A stretch of 11,886 nt of DNA from the UHGV virus genome UHGV-2004451; one strand, 5' to 3'. Both the position numbers and the translations under genes were made by a program. How positions within the stretch are numbered: position 1 is the first letter of the stretch; every line of letters begins with the position of its first letter. This DNA comes from a virus. Positions 1 through 11,886 of the stretch are shown here, one piece after another. Below the pieces are notes generated by a model that was not told where the DNA came from, made no database searches, and saw only the letters and a program-made list of their open reading frames with translations.

Positions 1-462
1 TGCTCTCCGCTCCGAAGCACGCGATCCGAGCGGCACGAGACGCTCACTATCGCCGACTCGACCCTTACGATGCTGTTCCGGCAGGAGTTCGAGCGGCAGA
101 TCGAAACGCTCCGCCGAACCGTCGTGGAGTTTTATCCGCCGGCGGAATATCCGGAACCGAGCGACGATCGATTCCCGAATCCGACCGACACGCTCCGTGC
201 CGTTCTTCCGCCTCCGAAGATTCCGGCGGCGAGTGTTTCCCGGCAGCCGGTCAAGCGCATCTCTTATACCGAGGTGTCGATGCAGAACGACCGCACGATC
301 CTTACCGACAGCATTTCGCATAGCCGCATCAACACGGCAGCCCGCAACGACGTGCAGGAGCAGACCGACGAGCAGCCATCCTCCAGTGTCGCATGGCTCA
401 AGTGGGCGACGGCGCTCGTCGCACTGACGCTTCTGCTGCTCTTATTCCTCAAACTCCGATAA
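1..462 (+). CDS. Hypothetical protein with C-terminal transmembrane anchor; possibly the 3' end of a gene starting upstream of the window (alternative start ATG 70)
   Basis: Frame 1 is open from base 1 with no stop before the in-frame ATG at 70, so the true start is either upstream of the window or at 70. Stop TAA at 460-462. The C-terminus WLKWATALVALTLLLLLFLKLR is a single hydrophobic helix. No recognisable catalytic motif. Confidence 0.5.
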   Translation, partial: CSPLRSTRSERHETLTIADSTLTMLFRQEFERQIETLRRTVVEFYPPAEYPEPSDDRFPNPTDTLRAVLPPPKIPAASVSRQPVKRISYTEVSMQNDRTILTDSISHSRINTAARNDVQEQTDEQPSSSVAWLKWATALVALTLLLLLFLKLR

Positions 463-472
463 CCGAACCCTT

Positions 473-1255
473 ATGGCCAGATTGAAAACACCGATTTCAT
501 ACTATGGCGGCAAGCAGATGCTTCTGAAGCATATCCTGCCGCTGATTCCCGAACATACGCTCTATACGGAAGCCTTCTGCGGCGGCTGCGCCGTGCTGTT
601 CGCCAAGCCGCCCGCGCAGTGCGAGGTCATCAACGACACGAACACCGAATTGGTGAACTTCTACCGCGTGGCGCAGACGCAGTATGCGGCACTCAAGGCG
701 ATGATCGACGCGACGCTCCACAGCCGCGAGATACACGCGCACGCACGGCATATCAACGAGCATCCGTCGTTCTTCACGCCCGTCGAGCGGGCTTGGGCGG
801 TGTGGGTCTGCACGAAGTTGGGCTTCGCCTCGATGATCGACGGGACGTTCGGCTACGACCGCAGCGGCACGACGACGCTGAAACTCCGCAATGCGAAAGA
901 AGCCTTCACGGAGGAGTTGTGCAGCCGCCTCGACCGCGTTACGGTCGAGTGCGAGGACGGCATCGATGTCATCCGCCGCTACGACTGTCCCGAAGCGTTC
1001 CACTTCGTCGATCCTCCTTATGTCGGCAGCGACTGCGGACACTACAACGGTACGTTCGACGAGGAGGATTTTTCGCGGCTGCTCGACACGCTCGCGACGG
1101 TCGAAGGGAAGTTCATGCTCACGATGTTTCCGCACGAGAAGATAGAACGCCTCGCCGCCCGGTACGGCTGGACGATCCATCGGCTCGACCGCACCATCAC
1201 CGCCTCGAAAGTCTCCCGCCGCCGGCAGGAGGAGTGGATCACGACGAACTACTGA
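473..1255 (+). CDS. Dam-family (D12-class, alpha-type) N6-adenine DNA methyltransferase
   Basis: ATG start 11 nt after the upstream stop. Motifs appear in the order typical of Dam-like enzymes: YYGGK near the N-terminus, EAFCGGCAV (FxGxG-type AdoMet motif I), NDTNTELVNFY, and the catalytic DPPY (FHFVDPPYVG) near the C-terminus. The overlapping ORFs 497..1348(-) and 619..1302(+) have Arg/Gly-rich shadow composition. Confidence 0.9.
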   Translation: MARLKTPISYYGGKQMLLKHILPLIPEHTLYTEAFCGGCAVLFAKPPAQCEVINDTNTELVNFYRVAQTQYAALKAMIDATLHSREIHAHARHINEHPSFFTPVERAWAVWVCTKLGFASMIDGTFGYDRSGTTTLKLRNAKEAFTEELCSRLDRVTVECEDGIDVIRRYDCPEAFHFVDPPYVGSDCGHYNGTFDEEDFSRLLDTLATVEGKFMLTMFPHEKIERLAARYGWTIHRLDRTITASKVSRRRQEEWITTNY

Positions 1256-1265
1256 TATCGCCCAT

Positions 1266-2225
1266 ATGGAACCGAATACTATCCATACCTGCGACGCTCT
1301 GACCGGTCTTCGGCTGCTTCCCGACGAGTCGGTGGACTGCATCGTCACTTCGCCTCCGTACTGGCAGATGCGCGACTACGGCATCGGCTCGATCGTATGG
1401 CCGGACGGTTGGTCGGGACAGTTGGGGTTGGAACCTACGCGCGAGGAGTTCATCGCGCATCTGTGCATGATCTTCGACGAGTGCCGCCGCGTACTGAAAC
1501 CCTCCGGCACGCTGTGGGTGAACTTGGGCGATTCGTATAGCAAACCATACAAATACAACCGCCGACAAGATCCCAAGTGGAGCGAGAATTCGAAGAACAG
1601 CGATTGCCTTATAGACATCAAGGTCGATACGGTGCGTCACCGTATTCCATCCAAGTCGCTCTGCAATATTCCGAACAAGTTCGCTGACGAAATGATCCTG
1701 CGCGGCTGGGTGCTGCGCAACGAGATCATTTGGTACAAGCCCGCCTGTATGCCCGCCTCCGTGCGGGATCGTTTTACGGTGGACTTCGAGAAGATGTTCT
1801 TCTTTACCAAGTCGCAGCGATACTATTTCGAGCAGCAGTTCGAACCGTATGCCGCTTCATCTTTCGACCGCTATAAAAATCCGGTAACGCTCAACGGCAA
1901 AAGCGAAAAGTATCGCTGCATCAGCGGAAAACCTCACGGACGCCTCGAGATAAATCCTCGCGGTCGCAATATGCGGTGCGTGTGGCGTATCCCTTATGAA
2001 CCGAGCCACGAGGCGCACTATGCCATGTATCCTTCGCGATTGGTCGAGACGCCGATCGAAGCCGGATGTCCCGAAGGGGGACTCGTTCTCGATCCCTTTA
2101 TGGGCAGCGGAACGACGGCAGTCGTCGCCCGACGATTAGGACGCCATTACATCGGCTTCGAACCCAATCCGGAGTATGTCGCAATTTGCGAGAAGAGACT
2201 CGAACAGCAAACCCTCTCCCTTTGA
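1266..2225 (+). CDS. Beta-class N4/N6 DNA methyltransferase (N6_N4_Mtase-type); the SPPY catalytic motif favours N4-cytosine or N6-adenine specificity
   Basis: ATG start 10 nt after the stop of the upstream methyltransferase. Catalytic motif IV SPPY (CIVTSPPYW) is N-terminal and AdoMet motif I (VLDPFMGSGTTAVVARRLGRHYIGFE) is C-terminal, which is the beta-class order. A lower-G+C central segment (about 1540-1700) sits where a target-recognition region is expected. Confidence 0.9.
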   Translation: MEPNTIHTCDALTGLRLLPDESVDCIVTSPPYWQMRDYGIGSIVWPDGWSGQLGLEPTREEFIAHLCMIFDECRRVLKPSGTLWVNLGDSYSKPYKYNRRQDPKWSENSKNSDCLIDIKVDTVRHRIPSKSLCNIPNKFADEMILRGWVLRNEIIWYKPACMPASVRDRFTVDFEKMFFFTKSQRYYFEQQFEPYAASSFDRYKNPVTLNGKSEKYRCISGKPHGRLEINPRGRNMRCVWRIPYEPSHEAHYAMYPSRLVETPIEAGCPEGGLVLDPFMGSGTTAVVARRLGRHYIGFEPNPEYVAICEKRLEQQTLSL

Positions 2226-2226
2226 T

Positions 2227-3003
2227 ATGTCTTCGCATACTTACGACAATCCCGCCTATATCGCTTCGTGCTCGTTCGGCAAGGATTCGATCGCTACGAT
2301 CCTCCTTGCCCTCGAGCACGGCGAGCCGCTCGATGCCGCCGTCTTCTCGGAGGTGATGTTCGACCACTGGCGCAATATCAGCGGCGAGATACCCGAACAC
2401 ATCGAGTGGATCTACTCGACGGCTATTCCGCGTCTTGCAGCCTTGGGCGTACGGGTCGATGTCGTCCGTTCGGAGAAAGACTATCTTACGTTATTCCATA
2501 CGGTCATAGGGAGCGGTACGCATAAGGGTATGCTGCGCGGCTGGCTCATCGGCGGCAAGTGCTGCGCCAACCGCGACCTCAAAATCCGGCCCATACATCA
2601 TTATTACGGTCGTTTCCGCAAGCAGGGCGTCGTGCAGTACGTCGGCATCGCGGCCGACGAACCGAGACGCCTCGCGCGGATGCAGGACAAAGGGTATATC
2701 CGTAAAACAAGTCTGCTCGCCAAGTACGGGTACACCGAGGCGGATGCCCGACGCAAGTGCGAAGAATACGGTCTGCTGTCGCCTCTCTACCGAACCTCGC
2801 ATCGGGGCGGTTGCTGGTTCTGCCCCAACTGCCGCATACCGGTCTTCGCCGAACTGCGCCGCCGACATCCCGAACTGTGGCGCGAACTGCAACGGCTTTC
2901 GAAGGTCGGAAATAAGTCATCCGAAGGCTTCAAATACGGGCAGACTTTCGAGGAGATCGAGCGGAGGATGGATCTCTTCGAACACGCGCCGACGCTATTC
3001 TAA
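2227..3003 (+). CDS. PAPS-reductase / DndC-like PP-loop ATP pyrophosphatase family protein (putative nucleotide or DNA modification enzyme)
   Basis: N-terminal PP-loop-like motif SCSFGKDS (SxGxDS type) and a C-terminal cysteine cluster CWFCPNC. The ATG at 2227 lies 1 nt after the TGA of the upstream methyltransferase (TGAtATG), implying translational coupling. An in-frame ATG at 2176 would overlap the upstream gene by 50 nt and is considered less likely. Confidence 0.7.
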   Translation: MSSHTYDNPAYIASCSFGKDSIATILLALEHGEPLDAAVFSEVMFDHWRNISGEIPEHIEWIYSTAIPRLAALGVRVDVVRSEKDYLTLFHTVIGSGTHKGMLRGWLIGGKCCANRDLKIRPIHHYYGRFRKQGVVQYVGIAADEPRRLARMQDKGYIRKTSLLAKYGYTEADARRKCEEYGLLSPLYRTSHRGGCWFCPNCRIPVFAELRRRHPELWRELQRLSKVGNKSSEGFKYGQTFEEIERRMDLFEHAPTLF

Positions 3004-3007
3004 ATAA

Positions 3008-3090
3008 CTGAAAATAAATATGATAATAGTTGCCGGATAACTTGCGTGTTCCGAATAACGATGTTATGTTTGCAGTACGATAAACAACTG
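3008..3090 (+). promoter_or_regulatory. Promoter repeat copy 1 (Bacteroidota-type -33 TTG / -7 TATGTTTG)
   Basis: An ~82-bp AT-rich element about 95% identical to copy 4. TTG at 3042-3044, a 20-nt spacer, and TATGTTTG at 3065-3072 match the TTTG-N19-21-TAnnTTTG consensus of Bacteroidota primary promoters. The leader contains GATAAACAACTG. It lies directly upstream of gene 3118..3540. Confidence 0.6.
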
Positions 3091-3117
3091 AATAATAAAC
3101 GATTAAAACACCCGAAC

Positions 3118-3540
3118 ATGACAAGTGCACAGGCAAAACAGATCGCATCGAACTATATGCGGCAGCAGAGCGATTACGTATTTTCGGCGGTAACGGTTAA
3201 AAGCCTCGCTCCGGCGAACGGACCAGTTAAGGTGTGGCTCACCACCGAAGACGACTACGGGGACGAACTGATCGTCGAGGTCGAGATGGACCCGCAGTCG
3301 AATGAGATCCGCTGGAAGAAGATCTGCAACACGGGACGCCTATCCGAATATCTGAAGCCGGCTACTCGGATCGATAAACTTTCGGCAGGACAACGCTTCC
3401 GGCTGCAAGGCGACTGCGTGGTTTACGAGTTCGTGGACAATGTAAAGGACCGCAGCAGTATTCCCTATATCATCCGACGGGCGGACCGGTCCGGTTGCGT
3501 ATCGAGAGTCGGATGGCAGGAAGTTTTTCCTATCGAGTAA
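3118..3540 (+). CDS. Hypothetical small protein (141 aa), first gene behind promoter repeat copy 1
   Basis: The ORF track gives 3046..3540, but its GTG start lies inside the promoter repeat (-7 box at 3065-3072). The first ATG downstream of the predicted transcription start is 3118. Balanced amino-acid composition; stop TAA at 3538-3540 is followed by a hairpin at 3550-3576. No recognisable motif. Confidence 0.6.
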   Translation: MTSAQAKQIASNYMRQQSDYVFSAVTVKSLAPANGPVKVWLTTEDDYGDELIVEVEMDPQSNEIRWKKICNTGRLSEYLKPATRIDKLSAGQRFRLQGDCVVYEFVDNVKDRSSIPYIIRRADRSGCVSRVGWQEVFPIE

Positions 3541-3549
3541 CCGATAACC

Positions 3550-3576
3550 GCGCACCTTGCCGAAAGGCAGGTGCGC
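3550..3576 (+). terminator. Stem-loop downstream of gene 3118..3540 (possible terminator or RNA processing site)
   Basis: GCGCACCTTGCC-GAAA-GGCAGGTGCGC: an 11-bp GC-rich stem with one bulged base and a GAAA tetraloop. No U-tract follows, so intrinsic-terminator function is uncertain. Confidence 0.4.
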
Positions 3577-3589
3577 ATAAAACGATACG

Positions 3590-3808
3590 ATGATGAAACT
3601 CCGCCGAACAAAAACCGGAACTTACACGATTGCGGGTATTACCGCAACTCAATATCGCGCCCTTGCGGCTGTGCTTACTACCGCCGATGGGCGTTGCTTC
3701 GACGAGCAGGACGGGGACGGCAACTATTACAGCAACGACGATTTCGTCTGCTCGCTCGATGGCGATGAACGCGAGGCATTGCGACAGGTGTGCGACGCGC
3801 TTCGATAA
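3590..3808 (+). CDS. Hypothetical small acidic protein (72 aa)
   Basis: ATG at 3590, 14 nt after the 3550-3576 hairpin. The C-terminal half is Asp/Glu-rich (DEQDGDGNYYSNDDFVCSLDGDERE). The competing frame 3571..3768 is Arg-rich and looks like a shadow ORF. Stop TAA at 3806-3808 lies just before promoter repeat copy 2. Confidence 0.45.
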   Translation: MMKLRRTKTGTYTIAGITATQYRALAAVLTTADGRCFDEQDGDGNYYSNDDFVCSLDGDEREALRQVCDALR

Positions 3809-3819
3809 CGTGTAAGATA

Positions 3820-3901
3820 TTGAAAATAAATGCGATAATAATTGCAGAAAGACTTGCGTGTCCCGAATTATGATGCCATCTTTGCAGCGTGATAAACAAC
3901 T
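3820..3901 (+). promoter_or_regulatory. Promoter repeat copy 2 (degenerate -7 box CATCTTTG)
   Basis: Same element with several substitutions. TTG at 3854-3856, 20-nt spacer, CATCTTTG at 3877-3884, then GATAAACAACT at 3891-3901. Directly upstream of gene 3917..4249. Confidence 0.5.
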
Positions 3902-3916
3902 AATATAGAGCGTATT

Positions 3917-4249
3917 ATGAGTACAAAAGCAAGAATCGGAGTAAGACTTCCCGACGGAAAAATCAAAAGCATCCATATATGGCGGGACGGACATCCCGAT
4001 ACGTTGGGCGAAATGTTGTCTGCGCACTACAATACATTGGAATCGGCAATGGCACTGGTCGAACGAGGCAACATAATCGATGTGGAGGCACGTCTCGAAG
4101 AGTGCCGGTTCGAGAAATCGAATGAACGGTGCGAAACCGAGCCTCGGATTTATAAAACGGTCGCCGCCTACGAACGAGAAATCGAGGAGGATATATGTTA
4201 CAAATATCTCTATCGGGACGGCAAGTGGGAATACCGGGCGGTCGATTAG
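3917..4249 (+). CDS. Hypothetical small protein (110 aa), behind promoter repeat copy 2
   Basis: ATG at 3917, about 25 nt downstream of the predicted transcription start of promoter copy 2. Protein-like composition with a Glu-rich C-terminus. Followed by a structured 3' region containing hairpins at 4285-4302 and 4337-4367. Confidence 0.65.
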   Translation: MSTKARIGVRLPDGKIKSIHIWRDGHPDTLGEMLSAHYNTLESAMALVERGNIIDVEARLEECRFEKSNERCETEPRIYKTVAAYEREIEEDICYKYLYRDGKWEYRAVD

Positions 4250-4284
4250 TAACCGACTTCCGATCGTAAGGAGCGAATGCTCCG

Positions 4285-4304
4285 AGCCTCCGACGGGAGG
4301 CTTT
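4285..4304 (+). terminator. Hairpin plus short T-run in the 3' region of gene 3917..4249
   Basis: AGCCTCC-GACG-GGAGGCT (perfect 7-bp stem) followed by TT. It is preceded by a second small hairpin GGAGC-GAAT-GCTCC at 4270-4283. Confidence 0.35.
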
Positions 4305-4316
4305 CCCTCGTTTCGT

Positions 4317-4397
4317 CCATTCAGTTGTTTATTGCGACCGGAGCCGTGCATCGTGTACGGCTCCGGTTTTCGTTCGAAGGCGGGACATTGTTTCTGC
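4317..4397 (+). repeat. Conserved structured 3' element, copy A
   Basis: CCATTCAGTTGTTTATTGCG, then the CCGGAGCCG/CGGCTCCGG hairpin with a loop containing CATCNTGT, then GGGACATTGTTTCTGC. Shares flank, stem core, loop motif and downstream motif with copy B. Confidence 0.6.
4337..4370 (+). terminator. Intrinsic-terminator-like hairpin (core of conserved 3' element copy A)
   Basis: ACCGGAGCCGT-GCATCGTGT-ACGGCTCCGGT: a perfect 11-bp stem followed by TTTT. Confidence 0.55.
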
Positions 4398-4469
4398 AAC
4401 GGATCTTCGGCAGCATGTATATTTACCATATGGGATATGCTTGATAAATAGTTGATATTCTTTGAATTA

Positions 4470-4533
4470 AGTTGTCGATAAACTTGCGCGTCCCGAATAA
4501 TGATGTTATGTTTGCAGTGCAACAAACAATTGA
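4470..4533 (+). promoter_or_regulatory. Promoter repeat copy 3 (core only; upstream part divergent)
   Basis: TTG at 4484-4486, 20-nt spacer, TATGTTTG at 4507-4514, with the conserved core CTTGCGCGTCCCGAATAATGATGTTATGTTTGCAGTGC. The leader motif is altered to CAACAAACAATTG. Upstream of gene 4560..4778. Confidence 0.55.
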
Positions 4534-4559
4534 ACTACAATCTATTAAACGACTCGATC

Positions 4560-4778
4560 ATGAATACTGCGAATCGAAAAAGAACGGAGATCGACGCCGA
4601 ACTCGACCGGTTGGAGGTCGAATTCGAAAAGAACCGTAAGGAGATGCAAGGCCTTGCCGACGAGAACAGACGTGCCGGCAACCGCTACGGCGAATTATCG
4701 AATGCGAATCACGACATCAACAACCGGATCCTCACATTGCTCGCTGAGCGTTGGGAATCGGAAGAGACGGCTGATTGA
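4560..4778 (+). CDS. Hypothetical small coiled-coil protein (72 aa), behind promoter repeat copy 3
   Basis: The ORF track gives 4500..4778, but that start lies inside promoter copy 3 (-7 box at 4507-4514). The first ATG in the leader is 4560. The sequence is charged with heptad-like spacing (EIDAELDRLEVEFEKNRKEMQGLADENRR). Stop TGA at 4776-4778 is followed by a GC-rich hairpin. Confidence 0.55.
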   Translation: MNTANRKRTEIDAELDRLEVEFEKNRKEMQGLADENRRAGNRYGELSNANHDINNRILTLLAERWESEETAD

Positions 4779-4791
4779 CGAAACGAGAGAC

Positions 4792-4824
4792 GACCCCGCC
4801 GAGAAACCGTCTTCGGGGCGGGGT
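4792..4824 (+). terminator. GC-rich hairpin downstream of gene 4560..4778
   Basis: ACCCCGCC...GGCGGGGT: an 8-bp G+C stem with a 16-nt loop that can partly pair (GAA/TTC), followed by TT. It begins 14 nt after the stop codon. Confidence 0.45.
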
Positions 4825-4855
4825 TAAGACCCGAAACAGGAGAACACATAAAGAG

Positions 4856-5053
4856 ATGAAAACGATGAATGCAAATGCAACGGTAGGCGACAAGATTCGC
4901 ATTATCCATCTTCGCGACGAGGACAGCCGTTACGACGGCAAGGAGGGTACGATCGAGTTCATCGACTCGCTCGGACAACTGCACGGCACGTGGGGTGGCT
5001 TGGCAGTCATTCCCGAAGTCGATCGGTTCGTAATTATCGAGAAACCGGAATAA
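4856..5053 (+). CDS. Hypothetical small protein (66 aa), beta-rich, reminiscent of small DUF-type domains common in phages and mobile elements
   Basis: The ORF track gives 4775..5053, starting at a TTG that overlaps the upstream hairpin. The first ATG after the hairpin is 4856. The motif GDKIRIIHLRDEDSRYDGKEGTIEFIDSLGQLHGTWGGLAVIPEVDRFVI looks like a small SH3/KOW-like beta domain. That assignment comes from memory only and is not verified. Confidence 0.5.
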   Translation: MKTMNANATVGDKIRIIHLRDEDSRYDGKEGTIEFIDSLGQLHGTWGGLAVIPEVDRFVIIEKPE

Positions 5054-5074
5054 TCGCCGGCAACGATAATGCTC

Positions 5075-5096
5075 GGTTCCGCCATCTTTTCGGAAC
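5075..5096 (+). terminator. Weak hairpin downstream of gene 4856..5053
   Basis: GGTTCCG-CCATCTTTT-CGGAAC: a 6-bp stem with a U-rich loop, lying between the stop codon and promoter repeat copy 4. Confidence 0.3.
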
Positions 5097-5106
5097 ACCT
5101 AATTTA

Positions 5107-5188
5107 CTGAAAATAAATACGATAATAGTCGCCGAACAACTTGCGTGTTCCGAATAACGATGTTATGTTTGCAGTACGATAAACAACT
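5107..5188 (+). promoter_or_regulatory. Promoter repeat copy 4 (near-identical to copy 1)
   Basis: TTG at 5141-5143, 20-nt spacer, TATGTTTG at 5164-5171, leader GATAAACAACT at 5178-5188. About 4 mismatches to copy 1 over 82 bp. Directly upstream of gene 5204..5491. Confidence 0.6.
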
Positions 5189-5203
5189 AAAAAAGAGCGA
5201 ATT

Positions 5204-5491
5204 ATGAGAACGAACATCGAACGGTTTTTAGAGAGATTCCCGAAGAATGCCACGAATTGGGCGCAGGCGACGGACGAGGTGCGCGACATGGCTCGCAAGG
5301 CTCGCGAATTGTTGGAAGAGTACGAAGGCGTCATCGTCGAACCGGTAAATTTCCGGGCTATCGAGACCCCGGCCGAGTGGAATACCGAAGGTCGCGAGTT
5401 CATCCTGACGAATTTCGATCGCATGGCGGATAGGACCAAAGAGCGCTTCTACGACTACTTCCGCGAGTGGTTCGAAGGCGAAGAGGAATAG
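5204..5491 (+). CDS. Hypothetical small protein (95 aa) with acidic C-terminus, behind promoter repeat copy 4
   Basis: ATG at 5204, about 25 nt downstream of the predicted transcription start of promoter copy 4. C-terminus is FREWFEGEEE. Stop TAG at 5489-5491 is followed by a perfect 14-bp hairpin at 5500-5536. Confidence 0.65.
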   Translation: MRTNIERFLERFPKNATNWAQATDEVRDMARKARELLEEYEGVIVEPVNFRAIETPAEWNTEGREFILTNFDRMADRTKERFYDYFREWFEGEEE

Positions 5492-5499
5492 ACCGACGC

Positions 5500-5536
5500 A
5501 CGGATGCTCCCCGCAGCTCGAACGGGGAGCATCCGT
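5500..5536 (+). terminator. Strong hairpin downstream of gene 5204..5491
   Basis: ACGGATGCTCCCCG-CAGCTCGAA-CGGGGAGCATCCGT: a perfect 14-bp stem beginning 9 nt after the stop codon. No U-tract follows. Confidence 0.5.
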
Positions 5537-5594
5537 CCTAACCCCGGAGTAGGGTTGCACACGTCGTCTCTTTCGATAGGAAATCTATCGTGCT

Positions 5595-5672
5595 CCATCA
5601 GTTGTTTATTGCAGCCGGAGCCGCATCATGTGCGGCTCCGGCAATCTCATTATAGAGGGACTTTGTTTCAGC
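5595..5672 (+). repeat. Conserved structured 3' element, copy B
   Basis: CCATCAGTTGTTTATTGCA, then the same hairpin core, then GGGACTTTGTTTCAGC. About 85% identical to copy A with a structure-preserving substitution in the stem. Confidence 0.6.
5614..5642 (+). terminator. Hairpin (core of conserved 3' element copy B)
   Basis: GCCGGAGCCGCA-TCATG-TGCGGCTCCGGC: a perfect 12-bp stem. Homologous to the 4337-4367 hairpin, with a compensatory T-A to C-G change at the loop-proximal pair. Confidence 0.5.
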
Positions 5673-5716
5673 GATGAGGCCTTTTGCCATTTTACCTTTA
5701 TTCCCGCGACAAAGGT

Positions 5717-8581
5717 ATGGCGATTTTCGGTCTAAAATATTACGCTGAACTTCGCTCGAAGTACAAGGGCGTTTTGTGGCGCGTGGAGATTTCGGAGCGG
5801 GGGTACGCAGGTCCGTCGGAGGAGATGGCCTTCGACGGCGGTACGCCGTTGCAGATTACGTGGGAGAAACGGGGCGACGAGTTCTACGTGCCGGTCAAGG
5901 CTTCGGAGGCGACCATCAATATCCTCTGCAAGGAGAATTTCCATTACCTGGCTCTGTTCACCTCCGATCCCCGTTATTTTCGCGTCTCGATTTTCCGCAA
6001 TCGGCAGCTCTATTGGCGGGGCTACGTCACCTCCGACCTCTACTCCGAGAACTTCACCGCTCCGCCCTATACCGTTACGATCAAGGCCGTGGACGGCTTC
6101 AACCTCTTGTCGAGCATTCCGTTCCGCGACCTCGTACATATCGGCATCGCGGGCAGGCGGTCGCTATGGGAACTGCTCTCCTCCTGCATCGACTTGTTGG
6201 AGTTGGATCTCGATACGGCGGACTGGATGGATCTGTATGTCGAGGGCATGGACGAGAACGCCTCTTCGCTCCGTCAAACCTATATCGACCTCGAACGGCT
6301 CTACTACGTCTACGAGGAGCCTACCTATCGCGACATCCTCGAACTGTGCCTGCGTCCGTTCGCCGGACAGATCTTCCAGTCGAACGGTGCCCTGCATATC
6401 CGCCGCGCCGTATCGCTCTACCGAACTGCCCGTCCCGTGAATTTCTATCGCGTCGGCACGGAGCATCCCGTCGGGCGGATCGTTACGGGCAGCGGACTGC
6501 GGCTCGTGATCCATACCGGTGCGCAGGTCGTCACATCGGCTGCACGCGAGCGCATCGACGGCATGTGGACGGGCGACCTGCACATCGAGGGAAGTTCGAC
6601 GCTCGACATCGTCCCTGCGCTGCGCAAGGTCTCGGTCGATGTAAAGAACAAGAGCCTCGACAACCTGATCGCCCGCATCGGGTTCTACGATCCCGACGCT
6701 TGGACGGATCCGCACGGCTTCGTCTCCGTGAAGAGCGGAGAGGAACTCTATTTCAGCGGCGAGGATGCCTATCGGGGTGCGGAAGTCGTAACTCGGGGCT
6801 TTCCCGTCGAGCAGTGCAACTTCCCGCTCGTATGGGAGTTCGGGTTGCAGACCTACCATCGGGAGTGGGGACTGGGCATTTACCGCCCGAACGAAAGCGT
6901 CGATGTCGCGGTGCATTACGGCGTCCGCATCGTCGGCGAAAAGGCGACATACAGCCTCGCCGAGAGCGGTTCGTGGGTGCAGTCCTCCGACGGGGAGATC
7001 GCGAGTACGGTCAAGACCGGCAACGAGCAGAACATGAAGATCGAGATCGACGGCATCCCCTGCGACGGCGAGTGGCGGTTCTTCGTCCGGCAGACGCTCA
7101 TCGGCAAGATCACGACCTATACCGACCGCTTCGGCAATCCGAGCGGCCGCACTTCGGGCTATATGGAGAGCGCCGCGTTCCGCAAGATGACGCTCTCGAT
7201 CGATGCGGGCGACAGCTACGACAAGGGTTTGCGCTACGAGTCGCTCGTCGATCCCGCGAACAATGTCGATATGTCCGTAACGCTTCCCGTGAGCGATATT
7301 CCCGCCATTCCGAACGACCGGCTGCTCTATGCGCTCTACTACCTCGATGCCGCCGGCAATCCCACGCGCATCTGGCATACGAAAGGTCGGAACGACTACG
7401 ACACGCTGGTCGGTCATATCGTGCAGGGAGCATTGCGGTACAAGCAGCTGCCGAGCCGGCGCATCACGGGCGAGATCTTCACGGGGCAGCATATCGATAT
7501 GAATACGGTGGTTCGGGACGACAAGTTCCTGAACGCCGCCTATTACCTGAACTCCATCGAACTGAATGCCCTCGACGACTCCTACAACAGCGAACTCACG
7601 GAGATGCCGCGCCTGCTCGCAACGGAGAGACCGCCGGAGGGCGACGACTGCATAGCGGTCGCGACGCTCTCCTTCACGGTCGGCAAGGCGATCCGCTGCC
7701 TGAACCGTCTGCTGCTCCAGTCCGTCGATAAAAAGACGGTCTATGCCTTCGACACCGCCACGCGGCAGGTACGGGAGATCTACCGCAGCACGGCATCCTT
7801 CGAGATGTACGAGGCGGACGAGGGTTTCGTCGCGGTGGACGGGAAAGGGGTCCGCTACCTCGACTATCGCGGTACGGTCGAACGGATATATACCCCGCCG
7901 GAGGAGTACCGCAACGTCGCGACCTACATGGACGGATATATCCATATCCTGAAATCCTACCGGCAATATATCGGTCCGCGGGGCGGCGATGCCGGCGGAC
8001 GCAGCGCCCGCACGGCAGAGGACGAGGATCCGAACTATCGCACCTATCGTTACCTCTCGCGCCCGGAGTGCAAGTACATTTCGCCCGATGCCTCGACCGG
8101 ATATCGCGGACGGGGATATGCCTACGAGGGTACGCCGATGTCGGGTGCGATCCTCGCCCTGCGGCGTACGGAAAATACGATCGTCGTGAATACCTCGCAT
8201 GGCGCCTATCTGCACGACAAGCGGTTCCACCAGCCCTGTAAGATGCTGCAATTCGCTGCGGGCGAGCAGATCGTCACCGTCTCCGACAACTATATCGGCA
8301 TCAACGCCGACGATATGCTGTGGTTCTATCGGCGGGATTCGATTACCGAGCGGACGCTGCTCCGGCGGTTGGGACGCTGGGCGGATCACGCCGACCATAC
8401 GATGAGCGAGGTCGTACACTCCTACGACGACGGCATCTTCATCCGGAACTTCCGCGACGACACGACGACCGACGTTCGGAACGCCGCCGGCTGGGGCGAG
8501 AACATCATGGGGCTGTTTTTCATCTGCGGCGACCTCTATATCGTGCGCGAACGGGCGATTTACAAATACATTCCTGAATAA
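5717..8581 (+). CDS. Large hypothetical protein (954 aa from the first ATG; 965 aa if the TTG at 5684 is used); possibly a virion or tail-associated structural protein
   Basis: This is the only one of three overlapping long ORFs with protein-like composition (aromatic-rich, balanced). The overlapping 5776..7731(+) frame is Arg/Gly-rich and 6164..8854(-) is Ser/Arg-rich, both typical shadow ORFs of GC-rich coding DNA. No Walker A or other catalytic motif was seen. The gene lies in the same + strand block as the tape measure gene. The function call is inference only. Confidence 0.75.
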   Translation: MAIFGLKYYAELRSKYKGVLWRVEISERGYAGPSEEMAFDGGTPLQITWEKRGDEFYVPVKASEATINILCKENFHYLALFTSDPRYFRVSIFRNRQLYWRGYVTSDLYSENFTAPPYTVTIKAVDGFNLLSSIPFRDLVHIGIAGRRSLWELLSSCIDLLELDLDTADWMDLYVEGMDENASSLRQTYIDLERLYYVYEEPTYRDILELCLRPFAGQIFQSNGALHIRRAVSLYRTARPVNFYRVGTEHPVGRIVTGSGLRLVIHTGAQVVTSAARERIDGMWTGDLHIEGSSTLDIVPALRKVSVDVKNKSLDNLIARIGFYDPDAWTDPHGFVSVKSGEELYFSGEDAYRGAEVVTRGFPVEQCNFPLVWEFGLQTYHREWGLGIYRPNESVDVAVHYGVRIVGEKATYSLAESGSWVQSSDGEIASTVKTGNEQNMKIEIDGIPCDGEWRFFVRQTLIGKITTYTDRFGNPSGRTSGYMESAAFRKMTLSIDAGDSYDKGLRYESLVDPANNVDMSVTLPVSDIPAIPNDRLLYALYYLDAAGNPTRIWHTKGRNDYDTLVGHIVQGALRYKQLPSRRITGEIFTGQHIDMNTVVRDDKFLNAAYYLNSIELNALDDSYNSELTEMPRLLATERPPEGDDCIAVATLSFTVGKAIRCLNRLLLQSVDKKTVYAFDTATRQVREIYRSTASFEMYEADEGFVAVDGKGVRYLDYRGTVERIYTPPEEYRNVATYMDGYIHILKSYRQYIGPRGGDAGGRSARTAEDEDPNYRTYRYLSRPECKYISPDASTGYRGRGYAYEGTPMSGAILALRRTENTIVVNTSHGAYLHDKRFHQPCKMLQFAAGEQIVTVSDNYIGINADDMLWFYRRDSITERTLLRRLGRWADHADHTMSEVVHSYDDGIFIRNFRDDTTTDVRNAAGWGENIMGLFFICGDLYIVRERAIYKYIPE

Positions 8582-8591
8582 GTGCGAAACT

Positions 8592-8966
8592 ATGGAAACA
8601 CTATCCATCATTCTGAACTTCATTCTTGCCAGCGGGTTGGCGGGAACGATCCTCTTTTTCAACGCGAAGAAGCGCAAGGAGAACGCGGCCGCCGACTCCG
8701 CCGAATTAGCGAACACGGAGAAGGTCGTGGCGATCCAATCCGAGCAGATCACGCGGCTGGACGGGCGCGTGGAGAAACTCGAAGAGAAGGTCGGCAAACT
8801 CGAAATCATCATCGAGCACAAGGACGTGGAGATCGACCGCAGCCGCATCGTCATCCGACAGGCCTACAAGTGCGAAACGCCGCCCGAACATTGCCCGGTC
8901 TTGCTCAAAAGAGCCGAGTTGGAGCGCAAGCGCAAAGAGACCGACGAAAATAACCGAAAATCATAA
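8592..8966 (+). CDS. Small membrane-anchored coiled-coil protein (124 aa); i-spanin-like or holin-like architecture
   Basis: ATG 11 nt after the upstream stop. N-terminal hydrophobic helix SIILNFILASGLAGTILFF followed by a charged heptad-like region (RLDGRVEKLEEKVGKLEIIIEHKDVEID). Two Cys near the C-terminus. The competing 8582..8953 frame is an Arg-rich shadow. Confidence 0.6.
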   Translation: METLSIILNFILASGLAGTILFFNAKKRKENAAADSAELANTEKVVAIQSEQITRLDGRVEKLEEKVGKLEIIIEHKDVEIDRSRIVIRQAYKCETPPEHCPVLLKRAELERKRKETDENNRKS

Positions 8967-9099: not shown

Positions 9100-9522
9100 A
9101 TGAACGAGAAAACTTTGCCGAGAGGGATGCGCAATCGTAATCCCGGCAATATCCGCCGGTCGGCGACGAAGTATCTGGGCGAAGTTGCGCCCTCGCGCGA
9201 TGCCGCATTCAAGCAGTTCGAGACGATGGCGTGGGGCTACCGCGCGATGTTCGTGCTGCTGGACTCCTACTCCCGCAAGGGCTACCGGACAATCCGGCAG
9301 ATGATCTCGCGCTACGCTCCGCCCATCGAGAACCATACCGAAAACTATATCCGTTGTGTGGCCGAATGGTCGGGTATCGGCGCCGACGAGCCGGTCGATA
9401 CGCAGGCGGGCGAGACGATGATTCCTATCGTGGCGGCTATGTCGCAGGTGGAAAACGGGCAACCGGCGGTACTATCGGACGTCGAGGCGGGCTGGACGCT
9501 CTATCTGCAACACAAACCCTAA
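9100..9522 (+). CDS. Hypothetical protein (140 aa) immediately upstream of the tape measure gene
   Basis: ATG at 9100; stop TAA at 9520-9522 lies only 6 nt before the tape measure start. Protein-like composition with the N-terminal motif RNRNPGNIR. Function not recognised. Confidence 0.65.
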   Translation: MNEKTLPRGMRNRNPGNIRRSATKYLGEVAPSRDAAFKQFETMAWGYRAMFVLLDSYSRKGYRTIRQMISRYAPPIENHTENYIRCVAEWSGIGADEPVDTQAGETMIPIVAAMSQVENGQPAVLSDVEAGWTLYLQHKP

Positions 9523-9528
9523 ACAGCC

Positions 9529-11886
9529 ATGTCCCGGAGAATCGCCGATTTACTTATAAAGATCGGAGCCGACTCGTATGAGTTCCAACAGAAGGCGCAA
9601 CAGGTCGAGAAAGGACTCGGCTCGCTCGAAAAGAAGCTGACCTCCGTCGGCAAGTCGCTCTCGCTGAAGCTCACCGCACCCCTTGCTGCATTGGGCGGCG
9701 TGTCGCTGCACCTGGCCGATGTGCAGGCCAAAGCCGAGGCGAAGGTGCAGCAGGCGCTCAAGGTTACGAATCAGGCCGTCGGTTACAACTTCCGGCAGTT
9801 GGCCGACTACGCTTCGGAGTTGCAGGGCAAGACACTCTTCGGCGACGAGACGATCCTCGACAAATCCACCGCCCGCCTGTTGGCTTTTACTAACATCACG
9901 GGCGAGAACTTCAAGCGTACGCAGGCGTTGGCATTGGACCTCGCCACGGCGTTGGAGATGGATTTGGGTTCGGCGTCGTTGCAGTTGGGCAAGGCGCTCT
10001 CCGATCCCGCGACGAAGCTCTCGTCGCTGTCGCGTGCCGGTATCGCCTTTTCCAAGGAGCAGACGGAGGTAATCAAGAAGCTCGCCGAGACGGGCGACAT
10101 AGCCAAAGCGCAGGCGATGATCCTCGACGAGTTGGAGCGCAAGTTCGGCGGGCAGGCCGAAGCCGCCGCACGGACGGGACTCGGCACCGTGCAGCAGCTC
10201 AAGAATGCGTGGGGCGACTTCCTCGAACGGATCGGTGCGGCCATCATGCCTTTCGCGACGAAGATAGCGGGTGCGCTCTCGACGGTCGTGCAGATGCTGC
10301 AATCGATGTCGCCGGCGATGATGCAGACGATCGTCGTCGTGGCGGGGCTGGTGGCTGCGATCGGTCCCCTTTCGCTCGGAATCGGCGCCGTGATCAAGGT
10401 GCTGCCGATGCTGGCGGCGGGATTTACGGCTCTGTTGTCGCCCGTCGGATTGATTATGGCGGCGGTCCTCGCGCTCGGTGCGGCATTCGCCTACGCCCGC
10501 CTCCAGAAGCAGAAGATGATCGACGAGATGGCCGAAACCGAATCGCTCGACGAGCTCGAACGCAAGTTGCAGGAGAATATCGCCGAGCAGAAAGAGATCA
10601 TCGCCACGACGACCAAGACGCGGATGGTTCCGAATTTCGGTGGATTGGTCGCCGGATTTATCTTGCAGAAAGTCCCCGACGAATCGAAACTCGCACCCCT
10701 GCGCAAGGAGTACGATCTGCTGACGGCAGCGATCGAAAAGAAACGCGAAACGGAGAAGAAGGCGGCCGAGGCGCAGGCCGAACTGGACAAGGTAACGGAC
10801 GAGGCTCGCAAGCAAACCGAGGAGTTGATGAAGTCCATCGCCGGAACCAACGCGCAGACGGAGCAGAGCACGGGCATCATCGGTAAATTGCAGGCGCGGA
10901 TCGAGGCCCTCGAAAAGAAGAAACTGCTGCCCGAATCGACCGTCGAGGATATCGCTGCGGCGAATGCCGAGATCGGGAAGCTACAAAAAGAGCTGGAGCG
11001 GATCCGAAATATCAAGCCCGAAGACCTGAAGCCCGTCGTCAAGATGGACGGTATTCTGCCCGCGGGCTTCGAGTTGGAACTGCCGGCTCCGAAACTCAAA
11101 ATGGGCGATCTGAAACCCGTAACATCGCAATATGCGCAGCAGATGCAGGCGATATTCGGTGCGGTGCGCGAAGGGCTTTACGGCTGGGCGGACGACAACA
11201 GCGCATACTTGCAAAATAACCTCGCCGATACGGTCTCGATGGTCGAGAACTACACGACAGCGCTGACGGCGAAGGGCTGGTCGTTCTCGGCGGCATTGGA
11301 GCATGTCCACGCCACGATTGCGGAGGTGATGACACGCTTCGATCAGCAGGTGTCGAAGTTTATGGCCGACAGCATCGTCGCTGCGGCGGAGGCTATCGGG
11401 CAGATCATCGCCGGCGATTTGGGATTCGGAGGGCTGATGAAAGCGATTCTGACGCAGTTCGCCAATTTTCTGAAAAATATCGGCTCGCAGCTCATCGAGT
11501 TCGGCGTGATGATCATCGCCTTCAAATCGGCGTTGAGATCCGTCCTCGCTAACCCGTGGGCGGCGATCGCCATCGGTGCAGCAATGGTCGCGGCAGCAGC
11601 CGTGATGACGGCGCTCATCAACAAGAATGCGCAGGAGAGCGTGCCGGCATTGGCCAACGGCGGTCTGGTATACGGTCCTACCTATGCGATGGTCGGCGAC
11701 AATCCCAATGCCGGTACGGATCCCGAAGTCATCGCTCCGCTGTCGAAGTTGCAGGCGATGCTCCCGACAGGCGGCAGCGCGCAGAACCTACGAATAACCC
11801 TCGGCGGTCAATTGACTGCCAAGGGTCGGGATTTGGTGTATGTTCTCGGAAAAGAGAACTTCAAGTCAGAGGTGCTGGGTGGGTGA
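9529..11886 (+). CDS. Phage tail tape measure protein (785 aa)
   Basis: The N-terminal region matches the conserved tape measure core signature as I recall it (LGKALSDPATKLSSLSRAGIAFSKEQTEVIKKLAETGDIAKAQAMILDELERKFGGQAEAA). It is followed by long Gly/Ala-rich hydrophobic segments (IMPFATKIAGALSTVV...GLVAAIGPLSLGIGAV and AIAIGAAMVAAAAVMTALI) and an extended Glu/Lys-rich coiled-coil region. Stop TGA at 11884-11886 coincides with the window end. Minus-strand and off-frame ORFs inside it are GC-shadow artefacts. Confidence 0.85.
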   Translation: MSRRIADLLIKIGADSYEFQQKAQQVEKGLGSLEKKLTSVGKSLSLKLTAPLAALGGVSLHLADVQAKAEAKVQQALKVTNQAVGYNFRQLADYASELQGKTLFGDETILDKSTARLLAFTNITGENFKRTQALALDLATALEMDLGSASLQLGKALSDPATKLSSLSRAGIAFSKEQTEVIKKLAETGDIAKAQAMILDELERKFGGQAEAAARTGLGTVQQLKNAWGDFLERIGAAIMPFATKIAGALSTVVQMLQSMSPAMMQTIVVVAGLVAAIGPLSLGIGAVIKVLPMLAAGFTALLSPVGLIMAAVLALGAAFAYARLQKQKMIDEMAETESLDELERKLQENIAEQKEIIATTTKTRMVPNFGGLVAGFILQKVPDESKLAPLRKEYDLLTAAIEKKRETEKKAAEAQAELDKVTDEARKQTEELMKSIAGTNAQTEQSTGIIGKLQARIEALEKKKLLPESTVEDIAAANAEIGKLQKELERIRNIKPEDLKPVVKMDGILPAGFELELPAPKLKMGDLKPVTSQYAQQMQAIFGAVREGLYGWADDNSAYLQNNLADTVSMVENYTTALTAKGWSFSAALEHVHATIAEVMTRFDQQVSKFMADSIVAAAEAIGQIIAGDLGFGGLMKAILTQFANFLKNIGSQLIEFGVMIIAFKSALRSVLANPWAAIAIGAAMVAAAAVMTALINKNAQESVPALANGGLVYGPTYAMVGDNPNAGTDPEVIAPLSKLQAMLPTGGSAQNLRITLGGQLTAKGRDLVYVLGKENFKSEVLGG

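Follow-up and report, generated by a model that had tools for sequence, protein, structure and literature searches.

A 954-residue protein encoded upstream of the tape measure gene is a probable tail-tip hub of an Alistipes prophage

The UHGV virus genome UHGV-2004451 is a stretch of 11,886 nucleotides, referred to here at its full length as the window, and its largest gene encodes a protein of 954 amino acids (aa). A first-pass annotation made from the sequence alone had already singled out this gene by its size, and the ranking holds, with a 785-aa tape-measure-like gene in second place. It had also noted that the gene precedes the tape measure gene within one + strand block, and we find the two in a shared, operon-like block:

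5717-8581, + strand: coding sequence of the 954-aa protein, the proposed tail-tip hub; start ATG 5717, stop codon 8579-8581
8592-8966, + strand: g124, with an N-terminal transmembrane helix and then a coiled coil; always 3' of the hub gene, with synteny in 16 loci
9127-9522, + strand: lysozyme-like/transglycosylase-like protein (phrog_873, E = 5.5e-43), matching lytic domains within tape measure proteins
9529-11886, + strand: tape measure protein, 785 aa, with hydrophobic segments and coiled-coil segments; matches eight tape-measure PHROGs, the best being phrog_27166 (E = 2.3e-54)

As argued below from the predicted fold of residues 1-240, the domain layout, the pattern of conservation, synteny and the start codon, we consider it quite probable that the 954-aa protein is the tail-tip hub, of the baseplate hub or Tal type, of a temperate siphovirus-type phage integrated in Alistipes.

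The open reading frame runs from 5684 to 8581 on the + strand, giving 965 aa counted from TTG 5684 and 954 aa from ATG 5717, and the first-pass annotation had left the choice of start ambiguous. Homologous upstream regions settle it for the ATG. All homologues of the 954-aa protein begin with M-A-x-F-G-L-K-Y. Among 22 loci that we inspected upstream in frame, eight have an in-frame stop directly 5' of the ATG, two have a GTG in its place, and none of the others has a counterpart of TTG 5684 at the equivalent position. Additionally, a conserved box, TACCTTTAY (5693-5701), sits between the two candidate codons; if it is the promoter -7 element that it resembles, TTG 5684 would fall outside the transcript. 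Because of the stops before the ATG, the lack of conservation of the TTG and its position 5' of the conserved promoter box, we rule out TTG 5684 and conclude from these alignments that ATG 5717 is the true start and that the product has 954 residues.

Comparison with public sequences leaves no doubt that this is a real gene, because full-length homologues (45-98% identity) number in the hundreds and at least 1000 contigs carry the identical protein. In the collection's index it appears in more than 2000 assembly blocks, and NCBI holds the same 954-aa sequence as WP_229104288.1 under the title "MULTISPECIES: hypothetical protein [Alistipes]". The exact protein is carried on human gut metagenome contigs of 240-340 kb, an origin that holds for the samples whose source was shown, and relatives occur in species-level genomes of Alistipes, Rikenellaceae and other Bacteroidales, including cultured A. 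timonensis. A motif scan of the protein found no Walker A, HExxH or HxH motif and there was no Pfam match, in agreement with the first-pass annotation, which had recognized no motif or enzymatic signature. The same annotation had called the protein rich in Tyr and Trp. This is true of Tyr (6.6%, among the highest values of the window proteins) but not of Trp (1.6%, ordinary beside 1.5-3.2% in the other window proteins), and the argument from composition carries little weight. In several assemblies the hub gene appears split into products of 359 aa (P0271, P0276) and 578 aa (P0046-P0052) with 97% identity, and split copies are also present in NCBI genomes on contigs larger than 1 Mb. A frameshift or a nonsense mutation in prophage copies undergoing decay is the suggested cause.

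Structure prediction, which the first-pass annotation had recommended, revealed a hub fold at the N-terminus and a beta-propeller at the C-terminus. Our first AlphaFold (AF2) model covered the full length using close homologues only and was confident just at residues 320-495 and 640-954. Its N-terminus, with a predicted local distance difference test score (pLDDT) below 60, was unusable, and its fold search was swamped by generic WD40-type propellers. A second model, of residues 1-330, was built from a deeper alignment of 33 cropped diverse N-domains and reached a pLDDT of ~88 over residues 1-240, with a predicted template modeling score of 0.71. Together with mean identities computed across 26 family members, the models divide the protein as follows:

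5717-6451, + strand: residues 1-245, hub domain; beta-barrel followed by an alpha/beta domain, gp27/Mu gp44/Tal-like; mean identity 82%
6452-6673, + strand: residues 246-319, linker; pLDDT < 55 in both models; mean identity 64%
6674-7204, + strand: residues 320-496, predicted all-beta sandwich; pLDDT 77-91; variable, mean identity 55%
7205-7633, + strand: residues 497-639, middle region; unfolded in the monomer model, pLDDT 24-37; mean identity 78%, with many invariant columns
7634-8578, + strand: residues 640-954, beta-propeller; ~7 blades from ~26 short strands, pLDDT mostly 80-95; the most variable part, mean identity 52%

The gp27/Mu gp44-like superfamily takes in the N-domains of siphovirus Tal proteins and VgrG, and its members combine a tube-like beta-barrel with an alpha/beta domain. 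Both elements are present in our second model, and a Foldseek search with it returned 24 matches at E <= 1e-3, all of the hub kind. As modeled, then, the N-domain has the hub fold. A second tube-like barrel, with which a hub trimer would imitate the six-fold tube, could not be assigned: residues 246-319 and 497-639 are conserved, but their pLDDT is below 55 and no domain could be placed there. The linker may be part of the hub, and residues 497-639 possibly form an intertwined trimer element, or else supply the missing second hub barrel or another remainder of the hub. The relation to the hub superfamily is at the level of fold only. Pfam searches with 34 diverse N-domains gave no family even at E <= 1, neither phmmer nor a profile search matched a PDB sequence, and the protein does not belong to curated hub families such as Pfam Phage_GPD or Prophage_tail.

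Matches to tail tubes and distal tail proteins (Dit) also appeared in these searches, and the protein could in principle be an enlarged Dit, the hexameric adaptor whose gene normally comes after the tape measure gene, here with decorations and with the true hub encoded elsewhere. Such matches were limited to the first barrel, however, which hubs contain too, whereas in two independent search programs every top match over the full 170-190 residues was a hub and not a Dit. The best structural match was not a tube-like N-domain with a belt and a galectin-like domain, as it should be for a Dit, and the tail block offers no other hub candidate. We therefore regard an enlarged Dit as unlikely.

To place the hub domain in a wider family, we searched 1.8 billion cluster representatives and found 2718 that are related. 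Most share just residues 1-245 and have unrelated C-termini, in proteins of 600-2100 aa whose N-domain lies either at the N-terminus or behind a leader of 190-400 residues. Relatives at 35-41% identity can be aligned to about residue 745 and diverge beyond it, and one N-domain relative ends in BACON and viral-BACON carbohydrate-binding domains. Sequence methods place just the first 180-250 residues, in three PHROG families of which two have no known function and one is labeled "virion structural protein". What emerges is a conserved anchor to which interchangeable distal modules are joined, a pattern typical of host-recognition proteins attached at the tail tip.

The propeller is the most distal and most changeable of these modules, and among the more distant half of the family members its mean identity falls to 40%. 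Its top Foldseek matches are all WD40-type or designed propellers with seven or eight blades (E ~1e-8). There was no match to a sialidase, levanase or lectin family, and the structural matches are generic WD40-type scaffolds. Still, the predicted propeller is closed, distal and variable between phages, as expected of a module that binds a receptor or glycan, and we put the chance that it is the receptor-binding part at somewhat better than even. The earlier guess of a tail fiber, baseplate or receptor-binding protein was thus of the right kind, although what the models show is a hub with an extension rather than a fiber. Many of the same features would suit a peripheral receptor-binding protein or side fiber that is anchored by a hub-like domain while another protein forms the central tip: the C-terminus is long and variable and carries a propeller, homology to many proteins with swapped C-termini is confined to the N-domain, and the tip is evidently complex, since a 712-aa fiber-like protein and a DUF285/BspA-LRR protein are further putative adhesins. 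Against this, all matches are central hubs and spikes, which are to our knowledge the only proteins with a gp27/gp44-like fold, and we found no alternative hub gene. We judge a peripheral protein improbable.

The genes around the 954-aa gene are those of a tailed phage. The surrounding 28 kb is an integrated prophage, for which we found no published description in the literature. It begins with genes for a portal, an S78 protease (then a type II restriction-modification pair), capsid, connector, head-closure, neck and tail terminator proteins (then an AbiEii toxin-antitoxin pair on the - strand), a TP901-type major tail protein (PF06199/phrog_1407), two small genes in the chaperone position and a 169-aa gene. 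Next come Dam and N6/N4 methylases and six small genes, which occupy window positions 1-5491, followed by the 954-aa, 124-aa, lysozyme-like and 785-aa tape measure genes. The prophage ends with a restriction enzyme gene (- strand), the 712-aa gene, a 77-aa gene, the DUF285/BspA-LRR gene and an integrase gene (- strand). The first 5.5 kb of the window is an accessory island. The first-pass annotation had the 954-aa gene opening the late block; it does open the tail-tip transcription unit, but the window starts downstream of the head, neck and tail-tube genes. No sheath gene occurs anywhere from the portal to the integrase gene, and baseplate-wedge genes are absent too. The absence of a sheath gene implies a siphovirus-type tail, and together with the TP901/lambda-type tube protein it gives the non-contractile context in which siphovirus Tal proteins are found.

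This context also bears on whether the protein belongs to a virion at all. It might instead be a surface protein or enzyme expressed during lysogeny from a moron, or a VgrG-like part of a non-phage injection system such as a type VI secretion system (T6SS) or extracellular contractile injection system (eCIS). Yet its synteny with the tape measure and fiber genes is kept across lineages, and it has a late-type promoter in common with the capsid gene rather than the canonical one found at accessory genes. Genes for a sheath or baseplate wedge do not accompany it, no enzyme motif or family was found, and one homologue is annotated as a virion protein. A non-virion role is in our estimate very improbable.

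Several neighbors of the hub gene deserve comment. No protein of the prophage other than the 785-aa one is a candidate tape measure. The 712-aa protein, encoded 3' of the tape measure gene, has a fiber-type N-terminus and HTH..GL..EL repeats; we considered it as an alternative hub or Dit and ruled it out on account of that N-terminus and the lack of any hub signal. We found no other hub-like protein in the tail block, and no Dit was identified there. The lysozyme-like protein has 131 aa from ATG 9127 in public records, but its reading frame opens at ATG 9100, leaving the start ambiguous (131-140 aa). It carries an NPGNIR motif and matches endolysins as well as the lytic domains of tape measure proteins. 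With its single N-terminal transmembrane helix and coiled coil, g124 resembles a holin or spanin. From their sequences, these two proteins may form a lysis cassette or be associated with the virion; no further lysis genes were seen across the 28 kb examined.

Classical siphoviruses encode tape measure, Dit and Tal in that order. In the Alistipes lineage, the hub gene instead stands two genes ahead of the tape measure gene, not directly after the tape measure and Dit genes where a Tal is expected. The order in Alistipes and Rikenellaceae (hub, 124-aa, lysozyme-like, tape measure, 712-aa, 77-aa, DUF285) is kept by almost all of the complete loci that we examined, at identities as low as 45%, with a moron between the tape measure and 712-aa genes in some. 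Distant relatives are arranged differently: in Cellulophaga phage phi17:1 the gp59 homologue directly follows gp58 (tape measure), and in Flavobacterium phage 11b the homologue is placed approximately likewise, after the tape measure gene. Because these relatives keep tape measure then hub while the Alistipes lineage conserves hub first, the hub-first order appears to be derived and stable. The first-pass annotation had reasoned that either the order is unusual or the protein has another role; the order is indeed unusual, and therefore no other role is needed.

The absence of a Dit may extend beyond this prophage. Two metagenomic loci encode distant N-domain relatives (~35% identity) in giant proteins of 1434-1992 aa (L126, 5338-14973; L130, 6899-13305), and in both the start of the relative overlaps the tape measure stop, with no Dit between them and the same major-tail-protein family upstream. 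Judging from these gene orders, the whole family may be without a classical Dit. A locus from a Bacteroides-labeled metagenome-assembled genome (L039, 10001-20371) has the hub, 124-aa and lysozyme-like genes followed directly by the 169-aa and Dam genes and an integrase gene. Tape measure, fiber and head genes are missing from its surroundings; the locus seems to be a prophage remnant that has been rearranged, and it is uninformative on the classical order. In this phage family, the tail-tip block from hub to DUF285 occurs in two architectures (L008, L009, L011, L012, L028, L037; IMG/VR contigs 3300029749_000500, 3300029619_000304, 3300030320_000330 and others). It is either co-directional with the head genes, as in this prophage, or convergent with them and beside a + strand integrase gene at the prophage end. 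These two architectures show that the tail-tip block is an autonomous unit starting at the hub gene.

Upstream of the hub gene we identified elements that could insulate and drive such a unit:

5500-5536, + strand: perfect 14-bp stem-loop (arms 5500-5513 and 5523-5536, 100% complementary), 3' of the small gene g95b, which ends at 5491
5614-5642, + strand: second perfect stem-loop, of 12 bp, inside the 225-nt intergenic region
5657-5669, + strand: dyad element GGGACTTTGTTTC, centered exactly 30 nt upstream of the promoter box
5693-5701, + strand: TACCTTTAT box, 16 nt before ATG 5717, resembling the Bacteroidota -7 element

The fold of 5492-5660 has an energy of -78.4 kcal/mol (z = -5.55), and none of 200 shuffles was equally stable. 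No T-run follows the first stem-loop, which may serve as a terminator-like insulator. The consensus of the Bacteroidota -7 promoter element is TAnnTTTG. TACCTTTAT has its sole exact match in the window at this site, and GGGACTTTGTTTC has two window matches against 0.19 expected. Of 48 distinct homologous upstream regions, 46 contain a TAnnTTTRY box, 22-32 nt from box start to ATG. The palindromes at -30 vary with the lineage (GAACAgTGTTC, TGTAAACnnnGTTTACA, GACAaTGTC, AGTAAaTTACT, GGGACtttGTCCC and one with 15-nt arms), and a lineage's own dyad recurs with the same spacing at that phage's other late promoters, which precede the capsid gene, a fiber gene or another head-region gene depending on the locus. 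The late-type combinations of dyad and box are:

Window: 5657-5669/5693-5701 and 4383-4394/4418-4426
L049: ~4174-4218, before the capsid gene
L003: 17332-17344/17368-17376, before the 712-aa gene
L023: 1145 and 19253
L117, L125: 2933
L109: 879

From their arrangement, we propose that these sites are phage-specific late promoters with an activator site, the dyad at 5657-5669 being a putative site for a late activator in a class-II-like position. Because the dyad differs between lineages and is matched within a phage, a phage-encoded dimeric activator with diverged specificity is suggested. One look at the 10 kb upstream of a portal gene (L133) gave no clear candidate for the activator gene, and we know of no such late regulator that has been characterized in Bacteroidales phages. 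A sigma-70 promoter scan found nothing and a T-run terminator scan found one site within g124 (8634-8652), no more than chance; both scans are uninformative for Bacteroidota.

The late-type promoters of this prophage reappear behind moron insertions. Its structural region is broken by defense-type morons: an N6_Mtase/Eco57I and BsuBI/PstI restriction pair between protease and capsid genes (L049 1607-4034), an AbiEii/DUF6922 pair between tail terminator and major tail protein genes (L049 7139-8303), Dam and N6/N4 methylases 3' of the chaperone-position genes (window 473-2225) and an NgoFVII-type restriction enzyme on the opposite strand between tape measure and fiber genes (L003 16266-17318). 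Directly 5' of the capsid, hub and 712-aa genes, each behind such an insertion, stands a late-type promoter. The accessory island also contains four copies of a ~100-nt cassette, 60-80% identical (window 3001-3128, 3813-3940, 4470-4570 and 5100-5227), that hold the canonical Bacteroidota promoter box TATGTTTGC (CATCTTTGC in copy 2) and lie just 5' of small accessory genes of 140, 110, 92 and 95 aa. Since each has its own promoter cassette, these genes appear to be morons that are individually and similarly transcribed. The ATG called for the 92-aa gene (4500-4778), ATG 4500, falls inside the repeated cassette, and by register with the other copies its true start is probably the in-frame ATG 4560, giving ~72 aa. 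This gene additionally has a late-type dyad and box upstream, hence tandem promoters.

If the 954-aa protein is the hub, its role in the virion can be outlined by analogy. Three copies of the 245-residue N-domain would assemble into a ring closing the distal end of the tail tube and holding the C-terminal end of the tape measure protein, as in gp27, Mu gp44 and siphovirus Tal. The sandwich, the conserved segment and the propeller would hang below the tip, with residues 497-639 probably holding the trimer together and the variable propeller, of the seven-bladed type, most likely touching a structure on the host surface. Such contact would open the hub, release the tape measure protein and allow DNA entry. 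The neighboring lysozyme-like protein would perhaps be released with the tape measure protein and may help to cross the cell wall. The hub gene would be the first of a separate late transcription unit (hub, transmembrane/coiled-coil, lysozyme-like, tape measure) with its own promoter. More tentatively, all of these observations could be joined into one picture, possible as a whole but not one that we would call probable: a tail tip without Dit, in which a hub family of ~2700 clusters docks directly on the tube, the Alistipes hub, lysis-like and tape measure genes form an autonomous late cassette able to take either orientation relative to the head genes, and a phage-encoded dimeric activator switches it on through a palindromic operator that has diverged by lineage but stays matched across the late promoters of any one phage.

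These results attach a likely function to a protein whose public label is just "hypothetical protein". A hub with a swappable distal propeller is a likely determinant of host range in one of the commonest Alistipes prophages, and the same function is thereby proposed for ~2700 protein clusters from Bacteroidota phages and for three PHROG families that lack annotation. Annotation pipelines that rely on position to name tail genes could be misled by the hub-first order conserved here. The most interesting by-product of the hub analysis is the co-variation of promoter and operator, as matched pairs of the two offer a way into the control of late genes in phages of Bacteroidales.

Among known systems, the fold is closest to hubs of the T4 gp27 and Mu gp44 type (Mu gp44, 1wru; the 43-kDa tail protein of Shewanella prophage MuSo2, 3cdd; E217 gp41). 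Those hubs belong to contractile tails with sheath and wedge proteins, whereas no sheath gene is present here; sequence identity to them is ~10% with no Pfam match, and the 954-aa protein adds a 700-residue C-terminal extension while its second barrel domain was not identified. VgrG and eCIS spikes (PVC Pvc8, 9qgm; AlgoCIS, 7aef_q; E. coli c3393, 2p5z) belong to secretion or injection machinery that has gp5-like needles, unlike the 954-aa gene, whose setting is a complete prophage that includes portal and capsid genes. In its proposed working, the protein resembles the siphovirus Tal or hub proteins with C-terminal extensions (80alpha gp59, lactococcal p2 ORF16, mycobacteriophage Bxb1 gp25 and Douge gp18, T5 pb3). 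Their genes follow the order tape measure, Dit, Tal, in contrast to a hub gene before the tape measure gene and no Dit seen, and the C-terminal module here is a beta-propeller and not a lysin or fiber, with the peptidoglycan hydrolase encoded by a separate small gene. The true homologues are in other Bacteroidota siphoviruses. Gp59 of Cellulophaga phages phi17:1 and phi18:1 (phrog_23570, "virion structural protein") shares 30% identity with the N-domain over 185 residues (E = 2e-15), and phi18:1 is a siphovirus with a structural proteome that is reported to have been determined (PMC11946311). The families phrog_23570, phrog_30639 and phrog_33803 match the N-domain at E values of 1e-19 to 3e-6, and Flavobacterium 11b gp43 is likewise a relative. 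As here, these are large proteins (740-905 aa), but homology stops at about residue 180-250, with unrelated C-termini beyond; they are encoded after the tape measure gene, and no function has been assigned to any of them. We conclude that the 954-aa protein represents a new, very large and unannotated sequence family within a structural kind already known, and that its gene order is unusual yet conserved.

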